Notes under the pieces: generated by a model | What the model saw: the letters and a program-made list of their open reading frames with translations, nothing else | Database searches by the model: none | Told to the model about the DNA's origin: nothing | NCBI GenBank assembly: GCA_963714175.1 | Contig: CAVQNN010000003.1 | Coordinates: forward strand, 520,201 to 584,200 | Origin: an uncultured Actinomycetes bacterium | GTDB taxonomy: Bacteria > Actinomycetota > Thermoleophilia > RBG-16-64-13 | Reading direction: 5' to 3' | Length of the DNA: 64,000 bases | Shown: positions 5,999 to 24,901 of the stretch, piece after piece | Layout: every line of letters begins with the position of its first letter | How positions within the stretch are numbered: position 1 is the stretch's first letter | Program-made: the position numbers and the translations under genes

Positions 5999-6715
5999 CT
6001 AGCCTTTCCGGGGCGCCAAACCGGGGGGCGGCGTGACTATAGGCTTGCCGGTCACCGGATGGACGCAGTGGAACGGAAGCACCTCATGCTCGGGCCATCT
6101 CAATGGCGTGTAGTCCGTCAGCTCATCCGGACCGTAGGGATCCTCCGGGAAGGTGGTGGTTTGCAGCGCCACAAACTCAGGCGGTGTGAAGGCCCATCCG
6201 TTCTCGAAGGTGCAGATCCATACCGGCCGGTAGTTGAGCATCTTGATCTTCCACACACCGTCGCGCTTGACGTAGGCATTCTCATAGAGGGCGCCTTCCC
6301 ACCACTGGCGGGCGATCGAGGTGGGGTTGGGATTCCTTTCGTAGTGAGTGCCGGCCTGCATCATGCAGCGGAAACGCGCCGAGGCGGTCAGTCGATCAGC
6401 GGACACGTCGACCACGTCCTGCATCTGGGGGTGATCGAGCAGGAAGCCGAAGACCGGTCCGTTCTTGCCGTCGGTGAAGCGGTTACGGAAGCCATCGCAG
6501 TACATGCGGCGGGCACCGGCAAGGCCTCGGAAGATTCCGCCAAAGAAGTGAATCTCGCAATCCTCGTCGTAGCAGTCGACCGCCTCGTCGTACATGCACT
6601 TGTCGATGAAGTAGCCATAGAGATGATGCAGACGGCGGATGGCATGCACGTCTTCCAGCACTCCGAGTCTGTGCTCCAGCCGTTCGACCCGTTTCTGCAG
6701 CTCATCATCACTCAT
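5999..6715 (-). CDS. NTF2-like (SnoaL-type) superfamily protein with C-terminal Pro/aromatic-rich extension (paralog A)
   Basis: 238 aa. N-terminus MSDDELQKRVERLEHRLGVLEDVHAIRRLHHLYGYFID is typical of SnoaL-like/NTF2 proteins. RBS GGGAGGG. The C-terminal ~90 aa (ENGWAFTPPEF...PLRWPEHEV) is shared with paralog B. Confidence 0.75.
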   Translation of the reverse strand: MSDDELQKRVERLEHRLGVLEDVHAIRRLHHLYGYFIDKCMYDEAVDCYDEDCEIHFFGGIFRGLAGARRMYCDGFRNRFTDGKNGPVFGFLLDHPQMQDVVDVSADRLTASARFRCMMQAGTHYERNPNPTSIARQWWEGALYENAYVKRDGVWKIKMLNYRPVWICTFENGWAFTPPEFVALQTTTFPEDPYGPDELTDYTPLRWPEHEVLPFHCVHPVTGKPIVTPPPGLAPRKG

Positions 6716-6744
6716 GATCTTGACCCTCCCGTATCCAGAACGGC

Positions 6745-7395
6745 CTAGTCGGCGTACGGCTCCGGCGGCGGTGGTTGCATCACATTTATCCGGTAGCGGC
6801 TGTACGGCATGTAGTAGGTGGTCGGCCTGTCCGGCACGTTTTCCGGAGAACCAGCGATACTGGCCGCCACCGGCTCCTCCGCCCAGCCTTTCTCATACGG
6901 GCACATGAACGTCTGGCGGTAGGCGAACTTGAGGAATCTCCACTGCCCGTCCTCTTTGACATACTCCATGTCGTATTTCCCCAGGCAGAGGAATTGCTTC
7001 AAGGTACCTTCCACCATGAGGGAACAGTAGCCGTGCGAGTGCCAGAGTCCCCTAGCTCTCGTTCGGTCGCGGTTGATTTCGATGATGGGGTTGACAGTCA
7101 TGTGAATCGCGAGGTGTCCCGCGCCGATCATCTTGTCGTCGAAGACTGTGTTCCAGAAGCGGGTGACGCTCTCGATGCCTTCGTAGACCCCGCTGTCCTC
7201 CATCTCCAGGTTGACCCCTGGCGTCTTCTGGGCAAACAGAGCTGGTACCTCGGATCTTCTTCCGATGTGGTAGAGGTGCGAGTACAGCGATTGCAGCTTC
7301 CAGAGCTCGAGGTAGTCCTTGGCGAGCGCTCCCTCGGCCACCTGCTCTTTCAGGCTTCTCAGTTCGGCTTCCAGCTGCTCCAGAGTCATGGTCAT
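6745..7395 (-). CDS. NTF2-like (SnoaL-type) superfamily protein (paralog B)
   Basis: 216 aa, MTMTLEQLEAELRSLKEQVAEG...YLELWKLQSLYSHLYHIG. Same architecture as 5999-6715, including the EKGWAEEP...YMPYSRYRINV tail. Confidence 0.75.
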   Translation of the reverse strand: MTMTLEQLEAELRSLKEQVAEGALAKDYLELWKLQSLYSHLYHIGRRSEVPALFAQKTPGVNLEMEDSGVYEGIESVTRFWNTVFDDKMIGAGHLAIHMTVNPIIEINRDRTRARGLWHSHGYCSLMVEGTLKQFLCLGKYDMEYVKEDGQWRFLKFAYRQTFMCPYEKGWAEEPVAASIAGSPENVPDRPTTYYMPYSRYRINVMQPPPPEPYAD

Positions 7396-7406: not shown

Positions 7407-8432
7407 CTACCGACCGCCGGGATATAGCTTGATGCCCTCACCCATGGGCGACGACATCATGAAGAACAACTGCTTGCTGATGTTCCTGACGATCATCGGG
7501 CCTTGCGACACGTTCGGCGGAACGTATGCCCAGAAGGGCTTGTTGATAACGTGCTTCTCGCCGCCGATCCAGAGTTCCACCTCCGCGCGGAGGTCGGTGA
7601 TGTCGTCGTAGTTCAACGACGTGATCGCGATGGAGGTGCCGTAGGGCACGGTGTGGGTGTCCATGATCAGTTGGCCGGCTTTGGATGTGTCGCCGGGAAG
7701 AAGCCATCTCGTGTCGCAGCCGAACTCGGCGTCGGGGATCACGGTCTGGTCGATGTAGGCCATCGGACGACAGTAGGTGGGATCGAGGGGACGCATGAAG
7801 TCGGGCATCTTGATGTCGGCCGGCGTCCCGTAGACCATGTATCTCGCGTACTTCGATTCGCCGGGCTTCACTTCCCTGGCGATCGGGGGGGCTTTCTCCT
7901 CTGCCTCGGCCTTCTTGGTCTCGTCGTCCTTCTCTCTCGTGTAGACGCCGCCGGGGCCGGAGACCCAGTGCAGCGTCGGCCGGGAGTAGATCTGGCTGCG
8001 CACGCCTCTGTTGAACACAGGCATGTGGGGCAGGTTGGCGGGGATGTACGCCACCCAACTCGACTCCAGAGGGATTATCTCGTCGTCCATCTGCATGGCC
8101 ATGGGGTCTGTGTCTGCGAAATCTTCGGGATTTGTCCCCCACCAAGAGAGCAGCTCGGGAAAGCCATGAACATGGGGGAACATGCCTGGAGTCGCGTAGC
8201 CGATCTTCGCCAACTCCTCCCACGTCACCTGATTGGGGAAGGTGGAGGGCCATATCCAGGTGGTCTCCCCGTAGTAGGCACCGGGGATGACCTCCTCGTC
8301 GATCCAGTGCAGGTGCTCCATGCTGACGCGCTTGCCTTGGGCGGCCAGAAGGTCGCGCTGCTCCGGGGTCGGGCCAGGCAGTAGATGCCGCTTCTCGAGC
8401 GTGGTGCAGATGTACTTGTCGAATTCGCCCAT
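7407..8432 (-). CDS. Tandem-double cupin protein of the same uncharacterised paralog family (copies C3+C4 fused)
   Basis: 341 aa with two cupin units. Unit 1 is PHVHGFPELLSWWGTNPEDF...AYIPANLPHMPVFN. Unit 2 is DTHTVPYGTS...LRAEVELWIGGEKHVINKPFWAYVPPNVSQGPMIV. RBS AGGAGC. Confidence 0.7.
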   Translation of the reverse strand: MGEFDKYICTTLEKRHLLPGPTPEQRDLLAAQGKRVSMEHLHWIDEEVIPGAYYGETTWIWPSTFPNQVTWEELAKIGYATPGMFPHVHGFPELLSWWGTNPEDFADTDPMAMQMDDEIIPLESSWVAYIPANLPHMPVFNRGVRSQIYSRPTLHWVSGPGGVYTREKDDETKKAEAEEKAPPIAREVKPGESKYARYMVYGTPADIKMPDFMRPLDPTYCRPMAYIDQTVIPDAEFGCDTRWLLPGDTSKAGQLIMDTHTVPYGTSIAITSLNYDDITDLRAEVELWIGGEKHVINKPFWAYVPPNVSQGPMIVRNISKQLFFMMSSPMGEGIKLYPGGR

Positions 8433-8447: not shown

Positions 8448-8933
8448 CTATCCCTTGTAGGGGATGATCTCGAAGTTCATGATCTTGTGCGGGTCGAAGC
8501 CCTTGTCTTCCTCGAAATAGGCTTCCCGCGTACCTTCCGCTCCGGCCATCATTATCTCCACCTGGATGATGGGGCTGTCGACGCGAGTGACCTCCAGCGG
8601 ACCGTGGGGCAGCTCCGGCGGCAGATAGACGAGCGTCGGGCGGGTGAAGACGTACTTCTCCAACTCCGGCCCCATGTGCAGCACCACTTCCGCGCCGAAC
8701 TCATCCGGGTCGTCAGGGTTGCCGCCATACCACGCCAGCACTTCGTGGAAGTTGTGGGTGTGGCATGGGTTGTCTCCCTTGAAGGGCTTGCGGACGAACT
8801 GATGACCCATCATGAAGGGGAAGCCGATCTGCTGGTGCGAGATCATCAGACCGTCGAACACAGCGGTGCCGTCCGCCTTCATCGTCAGGAGCATGTGGGG
8901 CGGATGATGCACATACTGGTCGTACTTGCTCAC
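8448..8933 (-). CDS. Small cupin-domain protein, same paralog family (copy C5)
   Basis: GTG start preceded by AAGAGG (MSKYDQYVHHPPH...). Motifs CHTHNFHEVLAWYGGNPDDP and VYLPPELPHGPLEV. The longer ORF (to 9047) overlaps the upstream SDR and is judged spurious. Confidence 0.65.
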   Translation of the reverse strand: MSKYDQYVHHPPHMLLTMKADGTAVFDGLMISHQQIGFPFMMGHQFVRKPFKGDNPCHTHNFHEVLAWYGGNPDDPDEFGAEVVLHMGPELEKYVFTRPTLVYLPPELPHGPLEVTRVDSPIIQVEIMMAGAEGTREAYFEEDKGFDPHKIMNFEIIPYKG

Positions 8934-8988
8934 GTCTACCTCTTTCGGAGTGCTGCCTGGTTGCCTGCCGCGGGTTCGCGGAGGGCAA

Positions 8989-9786
8989 CTACAATACCGA
9001 ACCGCCGGACACATGGAAGACCTGCCCGGTGACGTAACTGGTGACATCGGACGCTAGGAAGAGGGTGGCGTTGGCGATATCCCTCGCCGTGCCCATCCTG
9101 CCCAGCGGGAATGCCCCGAGAAACGCCTTGTTCCTCTCCAGTGCTTCTTCCGGCGACAACTCGGGTTCTCCCTCGTGGAGGATGGCCCCGAACTTGGTGG
9201 GCGCCGGACCGGGAGCGACGCAGTTGACGCGGAGGCCGGCCGGTCCCTCAACCTTGGCAAGTTGCTTCGTGAACAGATCGAGCGCGTACTTGGACATGGC
9301 GTAGGTGCCGACGCCCATGGCGTACTGATGCGTGCTACCAGAGCCGATGTTCACGATGACCCCGTACTTCTGCGCGCGCATCAAGGGGACGACGGCCTGA
9401 GTGACGTTCATGGTGCCGATGACGTTCAGCTTGAACTGCTTCTCCCAGGCGACAGGGTCCTGATCCTCGATCGGGATCCCATCCTTGTGGAGGATGGCAC
9501 CGGCGACGTTGCAGAGGATGTCGATCCGTCCGTACTCGTCAATCACCTTGCGTACCATCGCCTTGACGGCGGCGTTGTCGGTGATATCGGCCTGCACGGC
9601 GAAGCTCTTGCAGCCCAGCTTCTTCACTGCTTCAGCCGTCTTCTCGGTATCCTCCAGGATGATGTCGGTGACAGCCACCGCATCAATCCCTTCCTGGGCC
9701 AAGAGCAAAGCTATCTCTTTGCCGAACCCTACTTGGCTGCCGGCCCCGGTGACGAGTGCCGTCTTTCCTGCAAAGGCGAGATCCAT
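8989..9786 (-). CDS. Short-chain dehydrogenase/reductase (SDR) family oxidoreductase
   Basis: TGAGSQVGFG Rossmann motif, NVAG, and YAMSK catalytic Tyr-x3-Lys. 265 aa. Confidence 0.85.
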   Translation of the reverse strand: MDLAFAGKTALVTGAGSQVGFGKEIALLLAQEGIDAVAVTDIILEDTEKTAEAVKKLGCKSFAVQADITDNAAVKAMVRKVIDEYGRIDILCNVAGAILHKDGIPIEDQDPVAWEKQFKLNVIGTMNVTQAVVPLMRAQKYGVIVNIGSGSTHQYAMGVGTYAMSKYALDLFTKQLAKVEGPAGLRVNCVAPGPAPTKFGAILHEGEPELSPEEALERNKAFLGAFPLGRMGTARDIANATLFLASDVTSYVTGQVFHVSGGSVL

Positions 9787-9811
9787 GGTTACCTTCCAAT
9801 CAAAGTAGTAG

Positions 9812-11659
9812 CTATGCGCAGATCACTTCGGCTATGTCATCCAGGCCCAATTCAAGGAGCTTGGTCTTGCTCGGCATGCCGGTTGCTTTGTCCCAATCCA
9901 TCAGATCCATGTACTCGTCGTAGATCTCTGCGTGCGTGAAGGTGATGCCGGCACGCGGACCCTGGGTCTTGGCGGGGATGCCCCGTAGCCGTTCAGGATA
10001 CTTGAAGGGTGTGACTATGCCTTCTCGCTGGTTGAACGCTTGCCGTACGTTGGTGATGCGCTCACCGGTCTTGAGTATTTCTTCCGTGGTCAGGTCGTCC
10101 CAGCCCGTGATCGCCTTCATGGCCTCGACCAACTGATCGACGTGCGGATATGACCCGATGACGAATTGGCACAGGCCCAACGCGCTGGCGGCGTGCAAGT
10201 AGTTCGTGCTGGTCTTGTGATAGAGCCCGCGACCGGCGCGAGCGGCGCGATCGACCTCATCGATGAGACCCGGTGGGTGCTGCCCGCCCCCTTGATTGTG
10301 GCGGCCAGGTGTGGGGTCCGCTCCGTACCCGGTGGCGAAGCCCCAGCTTCCCCTTGGGTCGTGGGCCCCGATCTCCTGCCCTCCGACGTGCATCGCGTAC
10401 TTTTCGGAGCCCTTGCCGACCCTCTCCGCGGCCAGCTTCACCCCGTCAGCAAGGATGTCGCCGAACCCCTCGCGCTTGCCGATCATCTCGGTCATGGCAA
10501 CGATGGCCTTGTGATTGCCCCAGGTCATCTCCAGTCCGCCGGTATCTTCCTTGCCGATGATTCCATTCTCGTAGCATTCGATCGCGAAGGCGACACAACC
10601 TCCGGCGGATATGGTGTCCACACCCAGTCGGTTGCAGATGTCGGAGGCGACGATGATCGAATCGAGGTTGCCGTTCGCGCAGTTGCTGCCGAACATCGCC
10701 AGCGTCTCGTACTCGGGCTTGTGGGCGCCCTCCTCGAACTCGTATTCCCCGGTCCCCGCCTTCATGATGCCGCCGCACGCAATGGGGCAGCGCCAGCAAC
10801 CATACCGGCGCTTCTGCTTGGCAAACACAGGTGGGCCACCGCAGTCCTCGTAGTTCGGCACATCTATCGCGGCGACACCGCCCCAATTCTTGGACGGCGC
10901 ATCGTCGCTGTTGCAGCACATGCCATAGATGCCGGGCGTGCCGAACTCGTGCAGCCCTTCCTTGTGGCCACCGAGGGCGTCGACGTGCCTTTTGTGCATC
11001 GCCTTGAGCGCTGCCGGTTCGGAGGCCCCGGGAGGCTGCAGGGTGCCCTGGACGGCAACGGCCTTGAGCCTCTTCGAGCCCATGACCGCGCCCAGTCCCG
11101 AGCGCGCGGCAGCGCGGCCCTTGTTGCACATCACCGAAGAAATGAGGGCCAGCTTCTCTCCGCCGGGGCCGATGCAGGCCACTTGAAGGTCCTTGCCATG
11201 CTCCTGCCTGAGGATGTCCTGGGTCTCGAAGGTATCCTTGCCCCAGACGCCGGCAGCGTCTCTCAGTTCGGCCTTGCCGTTGTTGATATGCAGGTACACC
11301 GGCGTGTCCGATATACCGGTGAAGAACACCGCATCGTAGCCGGCGAACTTCAGGTAGGGCCCGAACTCCCCGCCCGAGTTGGCGTCTCCCCAGCCGCCCG
11401 TCAGCGGCGACTTGCCGACGACGACATACCGCGAGCCCCCGACACCCTCGGTGCCGGTCAGGATCCCGGTGACGAAGCCGAGTGTGGCCTCAGGGCCGAG
11501 CGGATCGACGCCCGGCTTCTGACGGTCGAAGAGGATCCTCGCGCCCAGGCCGTAGCCCCCGAGGTACTCCCGAGCCGTCTTCTCATCCAGGGGCTCTTCT
11601 CTCATCTCTTTTGTGGATAGATCCACCCAGAGGATCTTTCCCATCACACCAAAACCCAC
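9812..11659 (-). CDS. aor: Tungsten-containing aldehyde:ferredoxin oxidoreductase (AOR family)
   Basis: 615 aa. N-terminus MGKILWVDLSTKE is typical of AOR. Conserved GLGARILFD and Cys-rich CWRCPIACGG [4Fe-4S] region. Full-length AOR domain architecture. Confidence 0.9.
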   Translation of the reverse strand: MGFGVMGKILWVDLSTKEMREEPLDEKTAREYLGGYGLGARILFDRQKPGVDPLGPEATLGFVTGILTGTEGVGGSRYVVVGKSPLTGGWGDANSGGEFGPYLKFAGYDAVFFTGISDTPVYLHINNGKAELRDAAGVWGKDTFETQDILRQEHGKDLQVACIGPGGEKLALISSVMCNKGRAAARSGLGAVMGSKRLKAVAVQGTLQPPGASEPAALKAMHKRHVDALGGHKEGLHEFGTPGIYGMCCNSDDAPSKNWGGVAAIDVPNYEDCGGPPVFAKQKRRYGCWRCPIACGGIMKAGTGEYEFEEGAHKPEYETLAMFGSNCANGNLDSIIVASDICNRLGVDTISAGGCVAFAIECYENGIIGKEDTGGLEMTWGNHKAIVAMTEMIGKREGFGDILADGVKLAAERVGKGSEKYAMHVGGQEIGAHDPRGSWGFATGYGADPTPGRHNQGGGQHPPGLIDEVDRAARAGRGLYHKTSTNYLHAASALGLCQFVIGSYPHVDQLVEAMKAITGWDDLTTEEILKTGERITNVRQAFNQREGIVTPFKYPERLRGIPAKTQGPRAGITFTHAEIYDEYMDLMDWDKATGMPSKTKLLELGLDDIAEVICA

Positions 11660-11700: not shown

Positions 11701-13020
11701 TCACTTGGCCCCGGAGATGCCCGGCAGCCAAGTAGCCAATTCCGGAATGAAGAAAATCAGCACCAGAAGGATCAGGCCCCACGCAAGGTAGGGCATGGAC
11801 GCCTTGAAGCAGTCGCTGAGAGTCACGTCTGGAGGAGCGAGCGCCTTCATGGTGTACACATCGAGCCCGAAGGGCGGGCTGATCAGCCCGAGTTGCACGC
11901 TCAGCAGGCACAGCGTGGCGAACCACAGCATGTCGAACCCCAGCACCTTGATCATGGGGAAGAAGATCGGCGCCGTGATCATGACGATGCTGGCCGGGTC
12001 CATGAAGGCCCCCAGGATCAGGAGGACGACCTGGGTGAAGGCGACGATGACCAGGGGGGGTACGTCGAGGCCGGTCGCCCACTCTGTCAGGCCCGTGACG
12101 GCGCCCGAGGTGGCAAGGAGGCGTCCGAAGCTTATGGAGCCCACCACGATGAAGAAGACCATCACCGAGATGCGCACGGTGCTGCGGCAGGCTCGGAAGA
12201 CCATCCTCCAGCTGAACTGCTTGTACAGCGCCGCCACAAGGACGCACGCGACGACGCCGAGCGCAGCACTTTCACTTGGGGTAGCGAGCCCAAAGAAGAT
12301 GCTGCCCATGACGGCGAGAAGGATCAGGCCGATTGGGACCAGGTAGAGCCACGTGGCCTTCAGCTTCTCGCGAAGGGGTATCTTGACCACATCGTAGGAC
12401 GGAGCCAACGTCGGATCCATCTTGCAGCGGACGACGATGTAGCCGGCCATCAACACAGCCAGCAGGATGCCGGGGAGGGTGATGGCCAACAACAGCTTCG
12501 AGATGGACACCTGGCCCATGGCCCCAATGAACACCGCCATCGCGCTGGGAGGGATGAGGATGGCCAGCGTGCCGGTGGAGATGATCGGGCCCAGGGTCAT
12601 CTCGTTCTTGTAGCCCCGCGCCATCATCTCGGGGAGGAGAACCCGCCCTAGGATGCCGATGCATCCACCGCTGATACCTATCGGCGCGCCCAGAAGCACG
12701 CCTACCCCGATCGCCACTAGGCTGAGTCGGCCGGGCACCTTGCCCATTACCTTGTCGACGGCGTCGACAACCATGGTGCCCGTTCCCGCCTCGAAGATGA
12801 CGTCACCCATCAGGATGAAAAGCGGGATAGGCAGAAAGACGTAGTTGGCCACCGAGCTGTACAAGCTCATGGCGAGCTGATCGATCCCGCTCCAGCCCCC
12901 CCAGAACACCGAGGCGCCGATGATGCAGGTGAACAGCATCCCGAAACAGATGGGCATGCCCGTGATCATGATGACCACAAGGCAGCCGAACATCAATACC
13001 AAGGCCTCAAACCACTCCAC
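11701..13020 (-). CDS. dctM: TRAP transporter large permease subunit (DctM family)
   Basis: 439 aa polytopic membrane protein with DctM-characteristic segments (GMPICFGML, LFILMGDVIFEAG, ISPPFGLDVY). Confidence 0.9.
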   Translation of the reverse strand: MEWFEALVLMFGCLVVIMITGMPICFGMLFTCIIGASVFWGGWSGIDQLAMSLYSSVANYVFLPIPLFILMGDVIFEAGTGTMVVDAVDKVMGKVPGRLSLVAIGVGVLLGAPIGISGGCIGILGRVLLPEMMARGYKNEMTLGPIISTGTLAILIPPSAMAVFIGAMGQVSISKLLLAITLPGILLAVLMAGYIVVRCKMDPTLAPSYDVVKIPLREKLKATWLYLVPIGLILLAVMGSIFFGLATPSESAALGVVACVLVAALYKQFSWRMVFRACRSTVRISVMVFFIVVGSISFGRLLATSGAVTGLTEWATGLDVPPLVIVAFTQVVLLILGAFMDPASIVMITAPIFFPMIKVLGFDMLWFATLCLLSVQLGLISPPFGLDVYTMKALAPPDVTLSDCFKASMPYLAWGLILLVLIFFIPELATWLPGISGAK

Positions 13021-13032
13021 AGGTGCTCCTCC

Positions 13033-13587: not shown

Positions 13588-13662
13588 TGTGTTGTTTACC
13601 AGGCACGGGGCGGCCGGTACACCGGCCGCCCCGTGCCTGCAGATGTGCTTGCGATCTAGTCT

Positions 13663-15945: not shown

Positions 15946-16013
15946 CCCTCATGGATAGTAGTGGCTTTACTTTGAGCCCCGCGGGGCTTAGAGTAGTGGA
16001 CACTACTAGCGTA
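15946..16013. promoter_or_regulatory. Operator-like cluster upstream of the UroD operon: perfect palindrome AGTAGTG-GA-CACTACT plus further CACTACTAG / TAGTAGTGG copies
   Basis: 15947-15955 TAGTAGTGG, 15981-15999 gAGTAGTGgaCACTACTag (inverted repeat), 16004-16012 CACTACTAG. A GC-rich hairpin AGCCCCGCGGGGCT at 15966-15979 sits between them. Confidence 0.55.
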
Positions 16014-16140
16014 CACTACTAGGTGTCGACCATCTTCAGATTGTCGACTGGTTGGCGTATCGTGGCGCTCCCGGGCATGGGTGTGGGCCCGGGCATCGGA
16101 TGTACGGTCTTCGACGAAGGCAGAACGAGAAGGAGCACAG

Positions 16141-18616: not shown

Positions 18617-18838
18617 ATGGCTATTCGCAACTTCGACGAGGACAAGTGCATCGGGTGCGGCAACTGCGTGGCCGCCTGCCCGATGGACGTCCTGCGAATG
18701 AACGAGGACGAGACCAAAGCGGTAGTGCAGTACCCGCAAGATTGCATAGCCTGCTGGGGATGTGAATCGTTCTGCCCCGAAGGTTGTTTTGACATCTCAC
18801 CAGAACGCGCCCGCGGCGAACTGGTCTCACCGTACTAG
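18617..18838 (+). CDS. 2x[4Fe-4S] ferredoxin
   Basis: 73 aa with CIGCGNCVAACP and CIACWGCESFCP motifs. Confidence 0.85.
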   Translation: MAIRNFDEDKCIGCGNCVAACPMDVLRMNEDETKAVVQYPQDCIACWGCESFCPEGCFDISPERARGELVSPY

Positions 18839-18840: not shown

Positions 18841-20544
18841 GTGGAAGGTATGAAAGAGTCGGGTCCGGAGCGAACGGTATTGACCACCGACGTGCTCGTG
18901 CTCGGTGCCGGGGGCGCGGGTATGTGTGCCGCGCTCAAGGCCAGGGAGAGTGGCGCGGACGTCCTCATGGTCGACAAGTGCGGCATCGGCTACAGCGGTC
19001 AGGTGCCCATCGGCGGGGGGATACTGGCCTACGTCTATCCTTCCTACGCCGACACCTGGGCCGAGAAGGTCACCAAGGACAGCAACTACTTCAACAACCA
19101 GGACTGGACCTACGCCTTCGGCAAGGCGATGCATCCGACGACCATGGATCTGGCCGACCTGGGGCTCACCTTCCTGAGGAAGGACGGGGAGATCGAAGTC
19201 CTTACCTGGGGACCGAACATCCACGTCACGCTCTTCGATGCGCCCAAGTCCCTGGAGGCTCTGAGGAGGACTGCGAAGGCCCGCGGGGTCAGGATGATGG
19301 ACAAGATATTCGTCATCGACCTGCTGAAGAACGGCGACCAGGTGGTGGGTGCCGTCGGCCTGGGGCTCGTCGACGGACGTGTCTACGAGTTCAATGCCAA
19401 GGCGACCATCGTCGCCACGGGGAACTGCGGATACCAGCACGAGAAGACCTATTCCTCCGTGCAGGGCGAGGGCCCCGCGATGGGCTACCGAGCCGGCGCG
19501 CAGATCACCAACGCCGAGTTCAACAGCATGTACGTCTGGGGCATCAAGCTCCTCGGCAAAGAGCTCATGGGCATTCATTTCTACCTGTACCTGGAGAACG
19601 CCCGCGGCGAGAAGATCATGGGCAAGCACTTCCCGGAACTGATGGTGGGCGAGCACGCGGTCTTGACCTTCGACCCCAGAGTCATCACTGCCATGTACAA
19701 GGAGGTCAAGGCCGGCCTGGGCCCGATCTACCTGAACCTGAACGGCCTGACATCGACTGAGATAGCCGGCCTGTGCGAGGAATTCGTCGAAGACCTGTCT
19801 CATATCATGGCGAACGACACGATGATGCTCCTCTGCGAGAAAGCCGGCGTCGACCCCTCCACAGAGAAGATGGAGATGTGGCCGAGGCTTCTCTACACAG
19901 GCGGCGGCCTCCGGATAGACATGAACTGCAAGACGACTGTGCCGGGCCTCTGGGCGGCCGGTGGCGCGTGCAGCAATCAGTGGACCAATGGGGGCGGCAG
20001 TCAGGCGGGTCTGGGAGTCCAGTCGGCCGCGGTGACCGGGTTCGCCGCCGGAGAGGACGCTGCGAAGTACGCGGTCGGCGCCTCGAGGTGCGATATCGAC
20101 CCCGACTATGCCGAGAAGGTAATCTCCAGGGTGCTGGCTCCGATGGAGCGCTCAGGCGAAGTCGATGCCTACGACATAACGTACAAGGTCCACGAGGCCA
20201 TCGTGCCGATGGAGTACAACCGCGTCCGCGAAGCCGCGAGGATGAACGAGGCGATGGGCATCCTGAAGGACGCCAAGGAAAGACTACAGCTGGTCGGTGC
20301 GGCCGACTTCCATGACCTTGCTCGCTACCACTCCGCGGAGAGCATGCTCATGTGCGCGGAGTTCACCTACAGGGCGGCTCTCATGCGCGAAGAGAGCCGC
20401 AGCCAGCACTTCCGCGAGGACTTTCCTGCTCGCGACGACAAGAACTGGTTCAAATGGATCAACGTCGAGCAACGGGACGGCGGCCCGGAGCTCTCCACCA
20501 TGCCCATCCCCATAAGCGACTACCGCCTACAACCCAACCCGTGA
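18841..20544 (+). CDS. FAD-dependent oxidoreductase of the fumarate-reductase/succinate-dehydrogenase/AprA flavoprotein superfamily
   Basis: N-terminal dinucleotide fold DVLVLGAGGAGMCAALKARESGADVLMVDK. 567 aa. Immediately follows the ferredoxin (ATG 4 nt after its stop), suggesting a Fd-flavoprotein pair. Confidence 0.8.
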   Translation: MEGMKESGPERTVLTTDVLVLGAGGAGMCAALKARESGADVLMVDKCGIGYSGQVPIGGGILAYVYPSYADTWAEKVTKDSNYFNNQDWTYAFGKAMHPTTMDLADLGLTFLRKDGEIEVLTWGPNIHVTLFDAPKSLEALRRTAKARGVRMMDKIFVIDLLKNGDQVVGAVGLGLVDGRVYEFNAKATIVATGNCGYQHEKTYSSVQGEGPAMGYRAGAQITNAEFNSMYVWGIKLLGKELMGIHFYLYLENARGEKIMGKHFPELMVGEHAVLTFDPRVITAMYKEVKAGLGPIYLNLNGLTSTEIAGLCEEFVEDLSHIMANDTMMLLCEKAGVDPSTEKMEMWPRLLYTGGGLRIDMNCKTTVPGLWAAGGACSNQWTNGGGSQAGLGVQSAAVTGFAAGEDAAKYAVGASRCDIDPDYAEKVISRVLAPMERSGEVDAYDITYKVHEAIVPMEYNRVREAARMNEAMGILKDAKERLQLVGAADFHDLARYHSAESMLMCAEFTYRAALMREESRSQHFREDFPARDDKNWFKWINVEQRDGGPELSTMPIPISDYRLQPNP

Positions 20545-20608: not shown

Positions 20609-22075
20609 ATGATCGCAAAAGAAAAGCTGGCAAAGATAGTTGGGGGTGCGAACGTCAGCGAGGATGCGGGGACGCTGGACGCGTACTCAAAGGACATGAG
20701 TTTTGTCAACCAGACCAGGCCGGCGTGCGTGGTGAAGCCACACAACGCTGACGAGGTGAAGCAACTGGTCGGACTCGCCAATGAGACCCTCACACCTCTG
20801 GTGCCGGTGAGTTCGGGCCCGCCTCATTTCCGGGGCGACACGGTACCGAGCACCGGTGGATCTGTGGTCGTGGATCTCAGCGGCATGAACAAGATCGTCT
20901 TCGTAGACCGGCCTCGCCGGGTCGCCATGGTCGAGCCTGGCGTTACGTTCGGCGAGCTGATCGAGGCCGCGACGAAGGAGGGAGTCAGGCTCAACATGCC
21001 GCTGCTCCCAAGGAGCACCAAGAGCGTCGTAGGCAGCCTCCTCGACAGAGAGCCTGTGGTGATGCCCAAGTATCAGTGGGACATCTCCGACCCCATCGCC
21101 TGCCTCGAGGTGATCTTCGGTGCTGGTGAGGATTTCCGGACAGGCCAAGCTGCCGGCCCGGGGACCGTCGAAGAGCAGTGGGCCGTGGGAGGCGTGCAGA
21201 AGGCGCCCTACGGACCTCATGTGGCCACCTGGCATCGGCTCGTCCAGGGAGCTCAGGGGACCATGGGCATCGTGACTTGGGCCTCCCTGCGCTGTGAGTT
21301 GCTTCCCAGCCTTGAGGAGCCCTACGTGGTGGGTTCCGCTCAGCTCGCACCGCTTCAGGAGATGGCCGCTTGGCTCATCCGCCTGAGGATGGTCAACGAG
21401 TGCTTCGTGCTCTCCAGCGCCAGTCTGGCGGCCATGTTCGCCGAACAATGGCCCACGGACTACAAGCGCCTCAAAGCCGCACTGCCGCCGTGGACTCTCT
21501 TCTATACAGTAGCCGGCTACGACTACTACCCGGAGGAAAGGGTCAGTTCCTACCTCAGCGACATCACCGACCTCACCAAGCGCCTGGGCGTTGAGCCGAC
21601 CAGGTCGGTCGGCGGTCTCTCCGCCCGCGAGATACTGAAGGCAGTCCAGCATCCCTGCTCGGAGCCCTACTGGAAGCTTCGTGCCAGAGGAGGCTGTGAA
21701 GACGTCCTCTTCCTGGCCCCGAACGACAAGGTCGAGGGGCTTGTGGAGATCATGAACGGTCTGGCCGGCAAAGCCGGCTACGCGATCTCCGACATGGGCA
21801 TCTACGTTCAGCCGATGGTGCAGGGGGCCGGTTCCCACTGCGAGTTCAACCTGTTCTACGATCCCGATAGCCCGGGCGACGCCGATCAGGTCAAGAACCT
21901 CGCCTCTCTCGCGACTAAGACTCTCATCGACGCGGGCGCCTTCTTCTCCAGGCCATACGGAGAAAACGCCCTGATGATCATGAATCGCGACGCGGCGACG
22001 GTCGCTGTGCTCAAGAAGTTGAAGCAAGTCTTCGACCCGAACGGGGTCATGAACCCGGGGAAGCTGTGTTTCTAG
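20609..22075 (+). CDS. FAD-linked oxidase (PCMH-type FAD-binding, GlcD-like)
   Basis: 488 aa with FAD_binding_4-like N-terminus (ADEVKQLVGLANETLTPLVPVSSG...VVDLSGMNKI) and FAD-oxidase C-terminal domain (VFDPNGVMNPGKL). Confidence 0.85.
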   Translation: MIAKEKLAKIVGGANVSEDAGTLDAYSKDMSFVNQTRPACVVKPHNADEVKQLVGLANETLTPLVPVSSGPPHFRGDTVPSTGGSVVVDLSGMNKIVFVDRPRRVAMVEPGVTFGELIEAATKEGVRLNMPLLPRSTKSVVGSLLDREPVVMPKYQWDISDPIACLEVIFGAGEDFRTGQAAGPGTVEEQWAVGGVQKAPYGPHVATWHRLVQGAQGTMGIVTWASLRCELLPSLEEPYVVGSAQLAPLQEMAAWLIRLRMVNECFVLSSASLAAMFAEQWPTDYKRLKAALPPWTLFYTVAGYDYYPEERVSSYLSDITDLTKRLGVEPTRSVGGLSAREILKAVQHPCSEPYWKLRARGGCEDVLFLAPNDKVEGLVEIMNGLAGKAGYAISDMGIYVQPMVQGAGSHCEFNLFYDPDSPGDADQVKNLASLATKTLIDAGAFFSRPYGENALMIMNRDAATVAVLKKLKQVFDPNGVMNPGKLCF

Positions 22076-22126
22076 CGGCGTAGTGACCGTTAGAGACAAA
22101 GCTGTGCAATAGAAGGAAGGAGCGAA

Positions 22127-23392
22127 ATGGCATTAGAAGAGTATTCCGGCGATATGAACATGTGCTGCCGGTGTTCGATGTGCAAGTTTGTGCCTTTGCA
22201 GATGGTCAAGGGTTACGAGCACGCCAACGTGTGCCCCAGCATATCCAGGTACAACTTCCACTTCTACGCGGGTGGCGGTCGGCTCAACATGGGAGCCCAG
22301 GGGCTGGACAAAGGGTTTGAGTACACGCCTCGGTACCTCGACAGTATCTACAACTGCCAGCTGTGCGGCGCTTGTGACGTTTCCTGCAAGTACGGCATGG
22401 ACATGGAAGTGCTCAGGCCTATCCAGGAACTGCGCATCAAGGCAGTCGCGGATGGTCACACCCATCCTGCTCTCGACAAGGTAGTGGAGAGGATGCGCAA
22501 GCAGGGCACCATGGTGCCCGGACCGGGCAAGCGGGGCGCGTGGGCTGAAGGACTGGGACTGAAGGACGCCACCAAGGAGAAAGTGGACGTTCTCTACCAC
22601 GTGGGTTGCTTGACCAGCTACGACAAGGAAATGCAGGGTGTCGCCAAGGCTACCGCCTCGATACTCACCAAGGCCGGCGTCAATTTCGGTATCGCCGGCG
22701 ACGCCGAGACCTGCTGCGGCGGCCGGGCCTACGAGATGGGCTACGAGGACGACTTCTTGGCGCAGGCTAAGAAGAGCATGGAAGTCATCGAGCGCTCCGG
22801 CGCGAAGACACTCGTGACCAGTTGTGCCACCTGCTATCAGTGCTATGCCGTCCTCTACGAGCGCTTCGGTCTCAAGGGCGATCTGAAAGTGGTGCACAGC
22901 AGCCAGATGATCGCCGATCTCATCGGCAGCGGCAAGCTCGAGCCGAAGAACCCGGTCGACCTGAATGTCACCTACCACGACCCCTGCCACCTCGGCAGGC
23001 TCGGGGAACCCTGGATCCATTGGAAGGGCAAGAAGGTCCCCGGCGACCGCTTCATCTTCGACCCGCCCAAGACCTACCGGCGCGGGACGAACGGCGTGTA
23101 CGAACCTCCACGCGAGGTGCTTGCCAGCCTTCCCGGCGTGACTCTCACCGAGATGGACCGGATCAAGGAGTACGCGTGGTGTAGCGGCTCCTGCGGTGGA
23201 GTGACCGATTCCAATCCCGAGTTCGCCGAATGGACGGCCAACGAGAGGATCGAGGAAGCCGTGTGCACCGGCGCCGAGGCGATCGTGACGGCCTCTCCCT
23301 GGAGCGAGAAGCTCTTCTCCGAGACCATCAAGAAGAACGGTGGCAGCCTGAAGGTGTATGACATCGTCGAACTGGTTGCCCAAGCCATATAG
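22127..23392 (+). CDS. (Fe-S)-binding oxidoreductase with ferredoxin-like and two CCG domains (GlcF/GlpC/HdrD-like)
   Basis: Cys clusters CCRCSMCKFVP and CQLCGACDVSC, then CCG-type motifs (CCGG...YHDPCHLGR; CSGSCGG). Confidence 0.85.
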   Translation: MALEEYSGDMNMCCRCSMCKFVPLQMVKGYEHANVCPSISRYNFHFYAGGGRLNMGAQGLDKGFEYTPRYLDSIYNCQLCGACDVSCKYGMDMEVLRPIQELRIKAVADGHTHPALDKVVERMRKQGTMVPGPGKRGAWAEGLGLKDATKEKVDVLYHVGCLTSYDKEMQGVAKATASILTKAGVNFGIAGDAETCCGGRAYEMGYEDDFLAQAKKSMEVIERSGAKTLVTSCATCYQCYAVLYERFGLKGDLKVVHSSQMIADLIGSGKLEPKNPVDLNVTYHDPCHLGRLGEPWIHWKGKKVPGDRFIFDPPKTYRRGTNGVYEPPREVLASLPGVTLTEMDRIKEYAWCSGSCGGVTDSNPEFAEWTANERIEEAVCTGAEAIVTASPWSEKLFSETIKKNGGSLKVYDIVELVAQAI

Positions 23393-23410
23393 GAAGGAGG
23401 GCGGTACGTC

Positions 23411-24901
23411 TTGGCTCTAGACAAGGATATCCACAGCGCGTTTGCAGATGTGGTGGGCGAGGAAAACATCTGTGACGATCCGGTGATGATGGCTTCGTAT
23501 TTCAAAACCGACTTCGCCGCCGTGATCTTGCCCAAAGACACGGCCGAGGTCCAGGCGGTCGTCAAGCTGTGCAACAAGTTCAAGCTGAAGTTCCGACCCA
23601 TCAGCACGGGTTGGACTGGAGTGTTCATCCCGGGCACCGTGCTGATCGATCTCAGGCGGATGAACAAGCTCATCGAGATCGACGAGAAGAACATGTTGGC
23701 GGTTTGCGAACCGTATGTGACCTCGGCCCAGCTGCAGGCTGAGCTCTTCAAGCGGGGTCTGAACACAAACATCAAAGGCTCAGGTGCCCAGGGCTCGGCG
23801 TTGCTGCGCGGCCACGGGGCCATGGACCAGTCCTGCGGGGCCGACGACAGGAACCATCTGGCCGTCGAGTGGGTGACCCCGGAGGGTGAGCTGGTGAGAA
23901 TCGGCTCGTGGGGTTCTTCGAACGAGTGGTTCTGTGGTGACGGGCCCGGCCCCTCCCTTCGGTGCCTGGTGCAGAGCACGGTGCCGCCGAGCGTGACGCC
24001 GGGGATCTTCACCAGGGTCGCCACCAAGGTCTACCACTGGCCGGGGCCCGAGAGATATCACCTGAAGGGCAACTCGCCGAACTACAGCCTCATCGAGCAG
24101 CCGGCGAACATGTTGCTGCGCTACTACAGCTTCCCAACGATCGACAAGTTGATGGAGGCGGAGAAGAAGATCGGCGAGAGCGAGATCTCCTTCATATGCT
24201 ACGGAATCAACTCAGCGATGGTCTCCGCGAACGTCACCCCCAGCAACGAAGAACAGATGGCCTTGTTCGATGTCGTCTCGAAAGAGGTGCAGGGCAACGG
24301 CTTCGTCGTGATCATCGCCGGCAACTCCGATGGGGATTTCGCGTACAAGAAGAAGGTGCTCGACACGATCATAAGCGAGACCGACGGCCTGTCGATGAAG
24401 ACGGTCGAAAGACCCGAGATCGAGGAGATCCTGCTGCGTCAGTGCACCCGGATCAGCGGCGCCATCAGAGAGACGTTCCGGCCCGGAGGCTACTTCAAGT
24501 CGCTCCCGGTCATGGGCCAGCGCGATCTGACCGTCCGGTGGGCGATCGGAGCCGGCGAGGCCAAGATGCCCCTCATCGAGAAGGGCTTGATCGTCGACGA
24601 CGGCGGGGCCTTCTTCGGTTGGGGAGTCGAGCACGGGCATCTCGGCAAGACCGAGATCTTCTGCGCGTTCAGCCCCATGAACCCCGAAGCCTGGAAGGGC
24701 GTCGACGCGTGGGAAGCGGAGCAGGGCAAGAGAGCGGTGGACGAGAAGTACTTCGCACTCACGATGGCCAGTCTAGACGTGATCGACGAGAGGACCGGAC
24801 CGGCCATGTCCAACTACCATCTGTGGTGGTACAAGGTGCTGGACACGCTCGATCCGAACGGAGTCATACCGCTGAAGGGCGTGAGCAAGCTCACACCTTA
24901 G
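23411..24901 (+). CDS. FAD-linked oxidase (PCMH-type, GlcE-like second subunit)
   Basis: 496 aa. TTG start after AGGAGGG. FAD_binding_4-like region (AEVQAVVKLCNKFKLKFRPISTGWTG...) with C-terminal LDPNGVIP. Confidence 0.8.
   Translation: MALDKDIHSAFADVVGEENICDDPVMMASYFKTDFAAVILPKDTAEVQAVVKLCNKFKLKFRPISTGWTGVFIPGTVLIDLRRMNKLIEIDEKNMLAVCEPYVTSAQLQAELFKRGLNTNIKGSGAQGSALLRGHGAMDQSCGADDRNHLAVEWVTPEGELVRIGSWGSSNEWFCGDGPGPSLRCLVQSTVPPSVTPGIFTRVATKVYHWPGPERYHLKGNSPNYSLIEQPANMLLRYYSFPTIDKLMEAEKKIGESEISFICYGINSAMVSANVTPSNEEQMALFDVVSKEVQGNGFVVIIAGNSDGDFAYKKKVLDTIISETDGLSMKTVERPEIEEILLRQCTRISGAIRETFRPGGYFKSLPVMGQRDLTVRWAIGAGEAKMPLIEKGLIVDDGGAFFGWGVEHGHLGKTEIFCAFSPMNPEAWKGVDAWEAEQGKRAVDEKYFALTMASLDVIDERTGPAMSNYHLWWYKVLDTLDPNGVIPLKGVSKLTP

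Follow-up and report, generated by a model that had tools for sequence, protein, structure and literature searches.

Two operons and a probable shared operator

The stretch of DNA analysed here (the window, 64 kb) carries, between positions 5999 and 24901, 18 intact and tightly packed genes that make up a minus-strand operon, a plus-strand TetR gene and a plus-strand operon. A previous sequence-only reading had described two compact operons with short gaps and, unlike the rest of the window, without frameshifts, and our analysis agreed: the intergenic gaps within the operons are 2–75 nt, and none of the island genes is interrupted, while the flanking genes (OppC/ABC, SBP_bac_5, HdrD-like, XDH-family, OYE and FtsH) are fragmented. 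Every gene named in that reading was recovered in its place with strong family matches, and its view of the locus as a compact catabolic island also held, the island being linked to a repressor, conserved, and of anaerobe type (W-AOR, ferredoxin, Fe-S/CCG proteins). Some gene boundaries were revised. The DctQ frame is 13033–13587 and not 13007–13606, and the most likely starts are placed at 8936 for the small cupin (162 aa, the same length in orthologues), 16144 for the URO-D gene (419 aa, identical to P0001) and 14826 for DctP.

The regulator, a TetR-family protein of 212 aa (15248–15886, plus strand; TetR_N, 1.2e-11), keeps the same position in orthologous clusters. The locus had been called TetR-centred and divergent, which is correct for the TetR gene relative to the TRAP operon but not relative to the plus operon, with which it is co-directional. 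Operator-like repeats lie in the DctP/TetR divergent promoter region (15100–15154), as overlapping copies spaced by 13 nt that contain the palindrome TAGTGAGCACTA, and operator-like tandem palindromes, AGTAGTGGACACTACT followed by TAGCGTACACTACT, lie 5' of the plus operon (15992–16022). Within the 64 kb, the palindrome TAGTGnnCACTA was found only at 15992–16022 and at 15113, that is, in both promoter regions; its three matches compare with 0.41 expected in the window, and none of 100 shuffles reached three. Among 11 fetched loci, some of them duplicates, TAGTGnnCACTA was present at equivalent intergenic sites in 8 distinct orthologous clusters. The palindrome in both promoter regions is probably the binding site of the TetR-family repressor, which would then control the divergent TRAP-uptake/catabolic operon together with its own downstream operon, making the whole region a single predicted regulon.

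All 18 genes stand in the same order in at least 10 distinct MAGs, at 55–93% protein identity, and their clustering is far beyond chance; comparative genomics, suggested with the sequence-only reading, found the genes syntenic. The MAGs are labelled Gaiellales, Thermoleophilia, Actinomycetota or RBG_16_64_13; uncultured anaerobic actinobacteria from soil and sediment thus share the island. A 2-oxoacid:ferredoxin oxidoreductase is also encoded in the window and, by gene content, together with the W-AOR, the ferredoxin and the CCG Fe-S proteins, points to an anaerobic setting.

Lyase, methyltransferase and transporter

LdpA is a diarylpropane lyase, a formaldehyde-releasing quinone-methide lyase that acts on lignin beta-1 dimers. 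The 238-aa NTF2/SnoaL_4 protein at 5999–6715 (minus strand; SnoaL_4, 3.7e-23) is an LdpA-family lyase by similarity, matching the LdpA structures 8abv, 8abt and 8abu over its full length (E 1e-51 to 1e-53, about 50% identity). All seven catalytic residues that are conserved across the family (Y35, D40, Y74, H97, E143, Y147 and Y165, NaLdpA numbering) are present, and the residues known to be essential from LdpA mutagenesis (PMC9942872) are all kept. Position 170, which is Gln in LdpA and His in most homologues, is Ile in this protein, so its substrate specificity may differ. The nearest relatives outside the lineage (65–66% identity) are encoded in operons with the order SnoaL_4, RPE65 (the lignostilbene dioxygenase family, LSD) and aldehyde dehydrogenase (Aldedh), which also carry GSTs, SDRs and GCV_T/MTHFR; these operons are an aerobic lignin-dimer funnel. 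A second, divergent SnoaL_4 protein (216 aa, 6745–7395, minus strand; SnoaL_4, 2.4e-15) is 26% identical to the first, and in all orthologues it has His or Tyr for LdpA Asp40, Cys for Glu143 and Trp for Tyr74. The LdpA acid/base residues are absent from this protein in the alignment with all its orthologues, and LdpA-type catalysis by it is unlikely. The generic description of both as NTF2-fold enzymes was right about the fold but missed the LdpA-family identity of the first.

The URO-D gene (16144–17403, plus strand; 419 aa; URO-D, 2e-23) had been assigned correctly to its superfamily, but not recognized as a putative corrinoid-dependent methyltransferase I (MT-I) of the O-demethylase/CdmB group. 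Among solved structures, CdmB is its closest match (E 1.3e-33), with HemE reaching only 3e-3. The CdmB clade, whose members include MtvB, OdmB, VdmB and MtoB, is the home of methoxy-aromatic O-demethylases. Among homologues at 54–60% identity, most are directly preceded by genes for a B12-binding protein and a MetH-pterin-like MT-II. In one variant of the cluster (L024), a gene for a corrinoid protein with a DxHxxG motif lies between the TetR gene and that for MT-I, directly upstream of the latter; in the 64-kb window, neither a corrinoid protein nor an MT-II or an activating enzyme was found. Expression of corrinoid methyltransferase genes in anoxic peat has been reported for the genus RBG-16-64-13 (PMC10805028). 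The LdpA-family lyase and the corrinoid MT-I are the two most informative assignments, and both were missed by the sequence-only reading.

The transporter genes, all on the minus strand, encode the large permease DctM (439 aa, 11701–13020; DctM, 1e-62), the small permease DctQ (up to 184 aa, 13033–13587; a hydrophobic translation whose orthologues carry PF04290 DctQ) and the solute-binding lipoprotein DctP (387 aa, 13663–14826; DctP, 4e-26), in which a lipobox precedes a Thr/Ala/Pro-rich linker. TRAP systems are classically known for acid transport, and import of an organic acid had been proposed here. However, alignment with E. coli YiaO and SiaP revealed that the carboxylate-binding, selectivity-filter Arg (LKIR/LKLR) is replaced by Ala (LK[MI]A) in DctP of the window and in 10 of 10 orthologues, which argues against that proposal.

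Redox enzymes and a new cupin family

The tungsten-type aldehyde:ferredoxin oxidoreductase (W-AOR; 615 aa, 9812–11659, minus strand; AFOR_N about 1e-77, AFOR_C 1e-100) matched AOR structures over its full length (9mqx, 2e-108; 1aor, 8e-99; 8c0z, 4e-83), and more strongly than FOR, WOR5 or BamB. Two short-chain dehydrogenases/reductases, of 265 aa (8989–9786, minus strand; adh_short_C2, about 9e-52) and 245 aa (17866–18603, plus strand; adh_short_C2, 2e-58), fall under every NCBIfam equivalog cut-off. The remaining redox genes are on the plus strand. A 73-aa 2x[4Fe-4S] ferredoxin (18617–18838), with two CxxCxxCxxxCP motifs and ferredoxin-type NCBIfam matches, has its stop codon 2 nt 5' of the start of an AprA/FrdA-superfamily flavoprotein (567 aa, 18841–20544; FAD_binding_2, 3e-30; Succ_DH_flav_C, 4e-18). 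The best solved relative of the flavoprotein is 8a8o, the PAPS reductase alpha subunit (4e-33). Relative to E. coli FrdA, R287 is kept but H44, H232, H355 and R390 have no equivalents; the Sdh/Frd/AprA fold assigned earlier stands, but the protein lacks both the His/His/Arg set that binds fumarate and the His for covalent FAD attachment.

Two VAO-family flavoproteins (488 aa, 20609–22075, FAD_binding_4 2e-16; 496 aa, 23411–24901, FAD_binding_4 3.5e-19) enclose a 421-aa Fe-S protein with Fer4_8 and two CCG domains (22127–23392; CCG 1.5e-27, Fer4_8 1.4e-6), for which the nearest NCBIfam is TfrB (1.6e-37, below its cut-off). In profile searches, the best solved relatives of the first flavoprotein were 4-phenol oxidases (eugenol/vanillyl-alcohol oxidases) and p-cresol methylhydroxylase (PCMH), at 1e-22, followed by D-lactate dehydrogenase (1e-14) and glycolate oxidase (3e-9); the second gave the same order, more weakly (1e-11). 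The Tyr/Tyr/Arg phenolate-binding triad is the defining feature of 4-phenol oxidoreductases. It is missing from the VAO-like proteins (in the first, R, K or H stands in place of the phenolate Tyr, and the C-terminal Tyr-Arg is unaligned), so their tie to phenolic substrates is weak.

Three Pfam-negative genes form one new cupin family: a bicupin (341 aa, 7407–8432, minus strand), a single-domain cupin of about 162 aa (8448–8936, minus strand; HxHx3E...H motif) and another of 138 aa (17434–17850, plus strand; HxHx3Q...H motif). The 162-aa protein is paralogous to the 138-aa protein (E 2e-17) and to both bicupin domains.

A possible anaerobic route for lignin fragments

No published pathway matching the island was found in the literature, in line with the earlier statement that it fits no textbook pathway. 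The explanation that we favour, and to which we give about an even chance, is that the island would serve the uptake and funnelling of a lignin-derived methoxylated para-hydroxyphenyl compound by an anaerobic Thermoleophilia-type actinobacterium; possible substrates are a diarylpropane of the beta-1 type or a related phenylpropanoid unit. The LdpA-family lyase, the corrinoid MT-I and the revised readings of DctP and the flavoproteins point to methoxylated lignin-derived phenolics and not to a hydroxylated aliphatic carboxylate. A simple acid is disfavoured because DctP lacks the selectivity-filter Arg, the AprA/FrdA-type flavoprotein lacks dicarboxylate-binding residues, and the closest relatives of the FAD_binding_4 proteins are 4-alkylphenol oxidoreductases.

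Going by family membership, the Arg-less binding protein would catch a largely neutral phenolic substrate, and the LdpA-family enzyme would dehydroxylate its benzylic carbon via a quinone methide and expel formaldehyde as a C1 aldehyde, so that a product of stilbene or vinyl type remains. Released and downstream aldehydes would be oxidized to acids by the W-AOR with reduction of ferredoxin, and O-methyl groups would be moved by MT-I onto a corrinoid protein, presumably encoded elsewhere in this genome and in-cluster in one relative. O2-independent side-chain redox and cleavage would replace the O2-dependent lignostilbene dioxygenase of aerobes; candidates are the ferredoxin-coupled AprA-like flavoprotein for reduction, the VAO-like/CCG Fe-S dehydrogenase complex for water-dependent hydroxylation or dehydrogenation, the two SDRs for alcohol/ketone interconversion, and the metal-cupins for isomerization, decarboxylation or C–C hydrolysis.

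An unlikely competitor is a co-regulated mosaic without a single linear pathway. Its core (AOR, cupins, VAO-like/CCG complex, SDRs and flavoprotein/ferredoxin) would carry out generic aldehyde/alcohol redox chemistry, either to balance redox during fermentation or for another class of substrate, and the LdpA-like lyase and MT-I would have been recruited independently (methoxydotrophy). The paralogous cluster L091/L092 combines AOR-bicupin, the FAD_binding_4/CCG/FAD_binding_4 triad, an SDR and ETF in the absence of LdpA, MT-I and TRAP, so the island core may serve a substrate more generic than a lignin fragment; UroD-like paralogues (72–83% identity) occur in other contexts of the same lineage (L007, L011 and L015), and the 138-aa cupin is dispensable, being missing from L002, L014 and L018. 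However, the gene order strictly kept in at least 10 genomes includes LdpA and MT-I, the operator is common to both operons, and the combination of the same functional classes in aerobic LdpA clusters suggests a coherent funnel.

The model of the sequence-only reading, in which a TRAP-imported aliphatic hydroxy or aldehydic carboxylate is processed by a GlcDEF-like oxidase, the AOR, SDRs and NTF2 dehydratases/isomerases, is improbable. The FAD_binding_4/CCG/FAD_binding_4 architecture does mirror GlcD–GlcF–GlcE, but the NCBIfam matches to GlcD, GlcE and GlcF score 5–10 times under the cut-offs, and solved VAO/PCMH enzymes outmatch D-lactate dehydrogenase and glycolate oxidase. Acids are the usual TRAP cargo, L091 also holds a PrpD-family gene, and a Chloroflexota locus (L086) has an AOR–MR_MLE–SDR–AOR run beside a UroD homologue, MR_MLE being a sugar-acid dehydratase family; against this, the model conflicts with the DctP and flavoprotein residues described above, and leaves neither the LdpA-family lyase, with its intact catalytic set, nor the corrinoid MT-I a role. 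It is hardly credible that the island makes or tailors a secondary metabolite of aromatic polyketide type, with SnoaL-type cyclases, SDR ketoreductases, cupins, a methyltransferase and flavoenzymes. Tailoring enzymes do often come from the SnoaL-like, SDR, cupin and FAD-oxidase families, and such clusters typically have a TetR regulator, but PKS, NRPS, ACP and exporter are all absent, the operon contains an uptake system, the NTF2 protein is specifically LdpA-like and not SnoaL/cyclase-like, the methyltransferase belongs with the corrinoid demethylases and not with SAM-dependent enzymes, and the W-AOR is a catabolic enzyme.

The favoured lignin-fragment route shares its functional classes (lyase, aldehyde oxidation, SDRs and O-demethylation) with the aerobic LdpA clusters, but has a W-AOR where aerobes use an NAD-aldehyde dehydrogenase and a corrinoid methyltransferase where they use LigM. 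On its best reading, the island would be the anaerobic counterpart of the aerobic lignin-dimer/methoxy-aromatic funnel.

Layout, integrity and conservation of the island

ORF mapping and family scans confirmed the gene list that the sequence-only reading had given for positions 5999–24901, although the strand of the TetR gene, the frame of DctQ and three start codons needed correction. The minus-strand operon begins with the promoter-proximal DctP gene (13663–14826) and continues with DctQ (13033–13587, in the corrected frame), DctM (11701–13020), an aldehyde:ferredoxin oxidoreductase, AOR (9812–11659), a first SDR (8989–9786), a 162-aa cupin (8448–8936), a 341-aa bicupin (7407–8432), a SnoaL_4 paralogue (6745–7395) and an LdpA-family SnoaL_4 protein (5999–6715). 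On the plus strand, the TetR gene (15248–15886) is followed by an operon whose first gene encodes a URO-D family protein, a putative methyltransferase I (MT-I, 16144–17403); behind it lie genes for a 138-aa cupin, a second SDR, a 73-aa 2x[4Fe-4S] ferredoxin, an Sdh/Frd/AprA-superfamily flavoprotein and a triad of FAD_binding_4, Fer4_8+2xCCG and FAD_binding_4 proteins (20609–24901). Gaps within both operons span 2–75 nt on the ORF map.

In the window, all 18 island genes are intact, whereas the genes on both flanks are broken up in different frames. The contrast noted in the sequence-only reading therefore stands for the window, but it is not a conserved property, as the orthologous islands L012, L014 and L024, from long-read MAGs, carry frameshifts themselves. 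It is thus more likely to reflect how evenly the contig was assembled or polished than to be biological, even though it coincides with the island borders.

Most genes in the flanks (1–5998 and 24902–64000) are split, among them those for FtsH, OppC/ABC ATPases, SBP_bac_5, an OYE-type reductase, two XDH-family Mo enzymes and an HdrD-like CCG protein. HdrD/CCG fragments, GltD-like Fer4_20 pieces and two xanthine-dehydrogenase-family molybdoenzymes, one apparently of the fused Fer2-Fer2_2-hammerhead-MoCoBD (Mop-like aldehyde oxidoreductase) type, follow directly downstream on the minus strand (25589–33936). They lie outside the conserved cluster and may act as additional redox enzymes for aromatics or aldehydes. 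A thiolase-like protein, its OB-fold (ChsH2_C-type) partner, an enoyl-CoA hydratase and an acyl-CoA dehydrogenase are encoded in the intervals 38447–40489 and 45877–47840. The products of these beta-oxidation-type genes might act on side chains or on what ring cleavage yields; in other genomes, the genes are not linked to the island. LigD, with ligase and primase-polymerase domains, adjoins Ku at 48766–51681 on the minus strand, forming a bacterial NHEJ pair. No tRNA genes and no Rfam matches were found in the window.

A database search with the URO-D-like protein returned thousands of relatives, and a scan of species-representative genomes yielded 80 loci, which we annotated by tblastn with the 18 window proteins. 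At least 10 distinct genomes carry the complete gene order, at about 55–93% protein identity. Among the 80 loci and the database contigs, it was found only in JGI metagenome contigs and in MAGs labelled Gaiellales (an order within the class Thermoleophilia), Thermoleophilia, Actinomycetota or 'Actinobacteria bacterium RBG_16_64_13'. Over the stretches that the loci cover, their flanks are not shared and differ among genomes. Scattering of the genes in relatives, which the sequence-only reading had named as speaking against it, is thus not what was found, and the island is a conserved unit within a single uncultured actinobacterial lineage. The AOR, the ferredoxin and the CCG proteins, together with a 2-oxoacid:ferredoxin oxidoreductase encoded elsewhere in the window, indicate by their predicted functions that the host is an anaerobe.

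Two intergenic regions carry candidate operators: overlapping repeats around TAGTGAGCACTA in the divergent region between DctP and TetR (15100–15154), and AGTAGTGGACACTACT followed by TAGCGTACACTACT in the spacer between TetR and the URO-D gene (15992–16022). With at most one mismatch, the palindrome TAGTGnnCACTA occurs three times in 64 kb, always within one of these two regions; 0.41 occurrences were expected, and none of 100 shuffles reached that number. Exact copies of TAGTGnnCACTA lie at equivalent intergenic sites in 8 distinct orthologous clusters. Such a shared palindrome is what a TetR operator common to two promoters should look like, which suggests that the repressor may bind at both sites. 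The repressor/operator pair is a potential biosensor for the island's substrate.

The LdpA-family lyase and the putative URO-D-family methyltransferase

The protein encoded at 5999–6715 matched SnoaL_4 (3.7e-23) and, over its full length, the LdpA crystal structures 8abv, 8abt and 8abu (E 1e-51 to 1e-53), with residues 6–227 aligning to 8abv 25–248 at E 2.6e-53; it shares the NTF2/SnoaL_4 fold with the extended C-terminal arm. LdpA, a diarylpropane lyase from Novosphingobium and Sphingobium, conducts the erythro-DGPD lyase step of the aerobic sphingomonad beta-1 lignin-dimer pathway, releasing lignostilbene and formaldehyde via a quinone methide, and mutagenesis has proven its Motif I His-Asp dyad (H97/D40 in NaLdpA) and the oxyanion tyrosines Y35/Y147 essential (PMC9942872). 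The corresponding residues of the window protein, H95, D38, Y33 and Y144, are invariant across all orthologues and 120 database homologues, and Glu143, Tyr74 and Tyr165 (NaLdpA numbering) are likewise kept in all of these. In the Motif II triad (E143/Y165/Q170), Glu and Tyr are retained and Gln170 is replaced by Ile in the window protein; position 170 varies within the family, being His in LSD-linked homologues, and so does position 183. By sequence, the gene belongs to the LdpA family, and diarylpropane deformylation is its predicted activity. The SnoaL_4 paralogue (6745–7395) has lost both the LdpA Asp and Glu.

The nearest relatives beyond the lineage (65–66% identity) lie in operons of the order SnoaL_4, RPE65 (lignostilbene dioxygenase family) and aldehyde dehydrogenase, which further hold GSTs, SDRs and a TonB receptor, and in one case also GCV_T, MTHFR and formyl-THF deformylase. 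These operons are an aerobic lignin-dimer funnel, and both of the two nearest outside relatives examined sit in oxygenase-containing operons. To our knowledge, LdpA-family lyases have so far been characterised solely in aerobic sphingomonads. Three SnoaL_4 homologues of 223–243 aa (P0260, P0308 and P0349) are labelled 'carotenoid cleavage dioxygenase' by JGI, probably an annotation spill-over from the neighbouring RPE65/LSD gene.

The protein encoded at 16144–17403 matched the URO-D family at 2e-23. Its best solved relative in the PDB is CdmB (E 1.3e-33, compared with 3e-3 for HemE), and matches to the MtaA-type and HemE NCBIfam models reached only about 1e-7, which sets this UroD TIM-barrel apart from HemE and MtaA and nearer to the MT-I enzymes. 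In a corrinoid-dependent chloromethane system, CdmB acts as methyltransferase I, and its clade includes the methoxy-aromatic O-demethylases MtvB, OdmB, VdmB and MtoB (PMC13222342). The island MT-I resembles those of the three-component corrinoid-dependent O-demethylase and methyl-halide systems (MtvABC, OdmABD, VdmABD, MtoABCD and CdmBCA) in its fold, with CdmB nearest, but it stands alone and heads a redox-enzyme operon rather than a methyltransferase operon.

Using the B12-binding and pterin-binding domains of E. coli MetH as probes, we searched for corrinoid protein and MT-II (partner methyltransferase) neighbours. For most URO-D homologues of 54–60% identity (Chloroflexota, Desulfobacterota and others), the gene directly upstream encodes a B12-binding protein, in many cases preceded by a pterin-type MT-II, and two actinobacterial paralogues (72–76% identity) have a B12-binding neighbour too. 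In the orthologous cluster L024, a 229-aa corrinoid protein with DIHDIG, GLSG and MIGGG motifs is encoded between TetR and the MT-I gene (9300–9989); this gene is missing from the window island and from the other orthologous islands, and no corrinoid protein, MT-II or activase was found within the 64-kb window. The genus RBG-16-64-13 has been reported to express corrinoid methyltransferase genes actively in anoxic peat (PMC10805028). Six Chloroflexota loci (L053, L059, L063, L067, L079 and L081) carry arrays in which two to four UroD-like MT-I paralogues are interspersed with as many as four B12-binding genes and with pterin-type MT-II genes. The arrays have the look of extensive methoxydotrophy-type methyltransferase islands in MAGs of Anaerolineae and Ardenticatenaceae.

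The TRAP transporter, redox enzymes and cupins

DctP, DctQ and DctM are encoded together as a TRAP gene set, with PF04290 detected on the DctQ orthologues. The 'LK(I/L)R' strand of DctP-type binding proteins carries an arginine that pairs with the substrate carboxylate. Alignment with E. coli YiaO and SiaP revealed that this residue, at the position of SiaP R147, is Ala in the window DctP and in 10/10 orthologues, and the second arginine is also absent. A carboxylate substrate is therefore doubtful for this arginine-less protein. At its N-terminus (14560–14760), a lipobox cysteine is followed by a Thr/Ala/Pro/Glu repeat linker (TTTTAAPE repeated, then TETTAAP), which is typical of Gram-positive-type tethered lipoproteins and varies in length among orthologues. 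Benzoylformate, the presumed ligand of the TRAP binding protein with the nearest solved structure (4MNC/4MNI), played no part in this argument.

The AOR aligned over its full length with 9mqx (2e-108) and with P. furiosus AOR (8e-99); carrying AFOR_N and AFOR_C, it groups with AOR proper over FOR, GAPOR, WOR5 and BamB, and its metal is predicted to be tungsten. For both FAD_binding_4 proteins of the triad, eugenol, vanillyl-alcohol and 4-ethylphenol oxidases and p-cresol methylhydroxylase ranked above D-lactate dehydrogenase and glycolate oxidase (orthologue profile: VAO/PCMH 1e-22 to 1e-20, D-LDH 1e-14, glycolate oxidase 3e-9). The 4-phenol oxidoreductases are thus the closest solved relatives, but alignment with solved relatives is limited to the FAD domain, and the cap (substrate) domains are unalignable with any solved member. 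The phenolate-binding Tyr/Tyr/Arg triad of VAO, EUGO and PCMH is not kept: the first Tyr aligns with R76 (K/H in orthologues), and the C-terminal Tyr-Arg of the target lies unmatched in an insertion relative to the profile.

As in the glycolate oxidase GlcDEF and the related dehydrogenases LctD/ETF and Dld-II, two FAD_binding_4 paralogues bracket a Fer4_8+2xCCG protein, which bears out the architecture behind the earlier description of the complex as GlcDEF-like; however, its scores fall far under the equivalog cut-offs (49 against 568 bits for GlcD, 25 against 284 for GlcE and 29 against 333 for GlcF), and unlike GlcDEF its FAD domains are nearer to VAO/PCMH. Because the VAO likeness is confined to the FAD domain, without the phenolate triad, and the Glc scores are low, the complex is GlcDEF-like by architecture, VAO-like by FAD domain and a member of neither functional group.

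The Sdh/Frd/AprA-superfamily flavoprotein, translationally coupled to the ferredoxin, has FAD_binding_2 and Succ_DH_flav_C domains and an AprA/TfrA-type likeness, with the PAPS reductase alpha subunit as its best solved match. Coupling to a small 2x[4Fe-4S] protein recalls AprAB and TfrAB, but it scores under all equivalog cut-offs and lacks both fumarate-binding residues and a sulfur-metabolism context. At the positions of E. coli FrdA His232, His355, Arg390 and the covalent-FAD His44 it has Y/V, L, S/G and G, and only the equivalent of Arg287 is kept.

Family scans gave no sequence-family match for the 341-aa bicupin. Both smaller cupins (162 and 138 aa) are paralogous to its domains. The HxHx3(E/Q)...H metal site is kept in 3/4 cupin domains and, with a predicted double-stranded beta-helix fold, places them in the cupin superfamily. 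By these sequence features, the cupins constitute a new family without a Pfam match.

A proposed anaerobic funnel for methoxylated phenolics and its rivals

In the aerobic sphingomonad pathway, LdpA is followed by lignostilbene dioxygenase, vanillin dehydrogenase and O-demethylation by LigM or VanAB. The island likewise combines an LdpA-family lyase bearing the catalytic residues with aldehyde oxidation, SDRs and a predicted O-demethylation part, and it has its own uptake system and local repressor. In contrast to that pathway, it has no RPE65/LSD dioxygenase. A tungsten AOR with ferredoxin takes the place of the NAD-dependent Aldedh; THF-dependent GCV_T/LigM or a Rieske oxygenase gives way to a corrinoid-type MT-I, and the TonB receptor or MFS transporter to TRAP. 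The AprA-like flavoprotein, the VAO-like/CCG complex and the new cupin family are additions, and the host is an uncultured anaerobic actinobacterium rather than an aerobic sphingomonad.

The island shares its functional classes (lyase, aldehyde oxidation, SDRs, O-demethylation, uptake and repressor) with the aerobic LdpA operons, and on this basis we read it as a probable funnel, working without oxygen, for a methoxylated 4-hydroxyphenyl fragment of lignin. Anaerobic counterparts would have taken over from every oxygen- or NAD-dependent part, and ferredoxin/Fe-S-linked flavoenzymes and cupins would replace the dioxygenase. Anaerobic p-cresol and p-ethylphenol pathways employ a PCMH-type water-dependent hydroxylase, an SDR alcohol dehydrogenase and aldehyde oxidation; the island's VAO/PCMH-family flavoprotein, SDR and aldehyde oxidoreductase may follow a similar O2-free logic for 4-hydroxyphenyl side chains, although a CCG Fe-S protein takes the place of the cytochrome c subunit and the phenolate triad is not conserved. 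What the data bear out is that the island is one unit, that it is conserved, that its operator motifs are shared and which families its proteins belong to; from this we infer the substrate, the sequence of steps and what the flavoproteins, SDRs and cupins do.

The strongest competing reading is a co-regulated mosaic, in which the redox core would act more generically on aldehydes and alcohols. In the paralogous cluster at loci L091 and L092, the AOR gene (72% identity) overlaps the bicupin gene (58%) by 4 nt (L091 8157–11038, L092 4961–7827). EtfB-EtfA, FAD_binding_4-CCG-FAD_binding_4, an SDR and a PrpD-family gene run divergently from this pair. This layout implies that AOR, bicupin, triad and SDR form a core able to exist without the LdpA, MT-I and TRAP genes. 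By coupling the triad to EtfAB, as in lactate/ETF complexes, the cluster suggests an ETF-coupled, possibly bifurcating, version of the core module. The earlier proposal of a TRAP-imported aliphatic hydroxy acid is weakened: GlcDEF-like architecture notwithstanding, the DctP is arginine-less, the GlcDEF scores are low, and the LdpA and MT-I genes are left without explanation. Four further candidates were rejected: bile-acid or steroid chemistry (BaiE, a SnoaL_4 protein, matched at E 8e-3 vs 1e-53 for LdpA), fumarate/succinate chemistry (the flavoprotein lacks the catalytic, fumarate-binding residues), tricarballylate TcuAB (specific similarity is absent) and a phloroglucinol/gallate pathway with SDR and cupin (no support past family names).

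Within the anaerobic-funnel reading, a more far-reaching version, which we consider unlikely, is an O2-independent cleavage route for lignin dimers (beta-1 diarylpropanes, possibly beta-O-4 aryl ethers). Here the LdpA-type lyase would work through a quinone methide and expel C-gamma in the form of formaldehyde, a parallel to the 'C2' acidolysis of chemistry, and the tungsten AOR would capture formaldehyde and aryl aldehydes, with electrons passing to ferredoxin. In place of lignostilbene dioxygenase, the two-carbon bridge would be reduced, water-hydroxylated, oxidised and hydrolytically split by the new metal-cupins, the SDRs, the VAO-like/CCG dehydrogenase and the ferredoxin-coupled flavoprotein, and the corrinoid methyltransferase would harvest methoxy groups.

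The enzyme superfamilies are all known; what is new is how the genes are combined, that an LdpA-family lyase stands in an anaerobic setting, that a TRAP binding protein lacks the arginine and that a cupin family has no Pfam match. Our literature search found no description of this gene combination, of an anaerobic LdpA/lignostilbene pathway or of what becomes of LdpA products under anaerobic conditions, and all dimer-cleaving enzymes known to us come from aerobic sphingomonads and are dioxygenase-dependent. Gene-level knowledge of the O2-free breakdown of lignin-derived oligomers in peat, sediments and digesters is still scant. The island sets an LdpA-family lyase amid strictly anaerobic enzymes (W-AOR, ferredoxin, CCG Fe-S proteins and corrinoid methyltransferase) in a lineage of widespread uncultured actinobacteria reported active in peat. 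The lyase, the arginine-less TRAP binding protein, the new cupins, the VAO-like/CCG complex and the AprA-like flavoprotein are candidates for O2-independent C-C cleavage of lignin fragments, and the dimer-cleavage version, if true, would open a first genetic access to the way bacteria split lignin dimers without oxygen.
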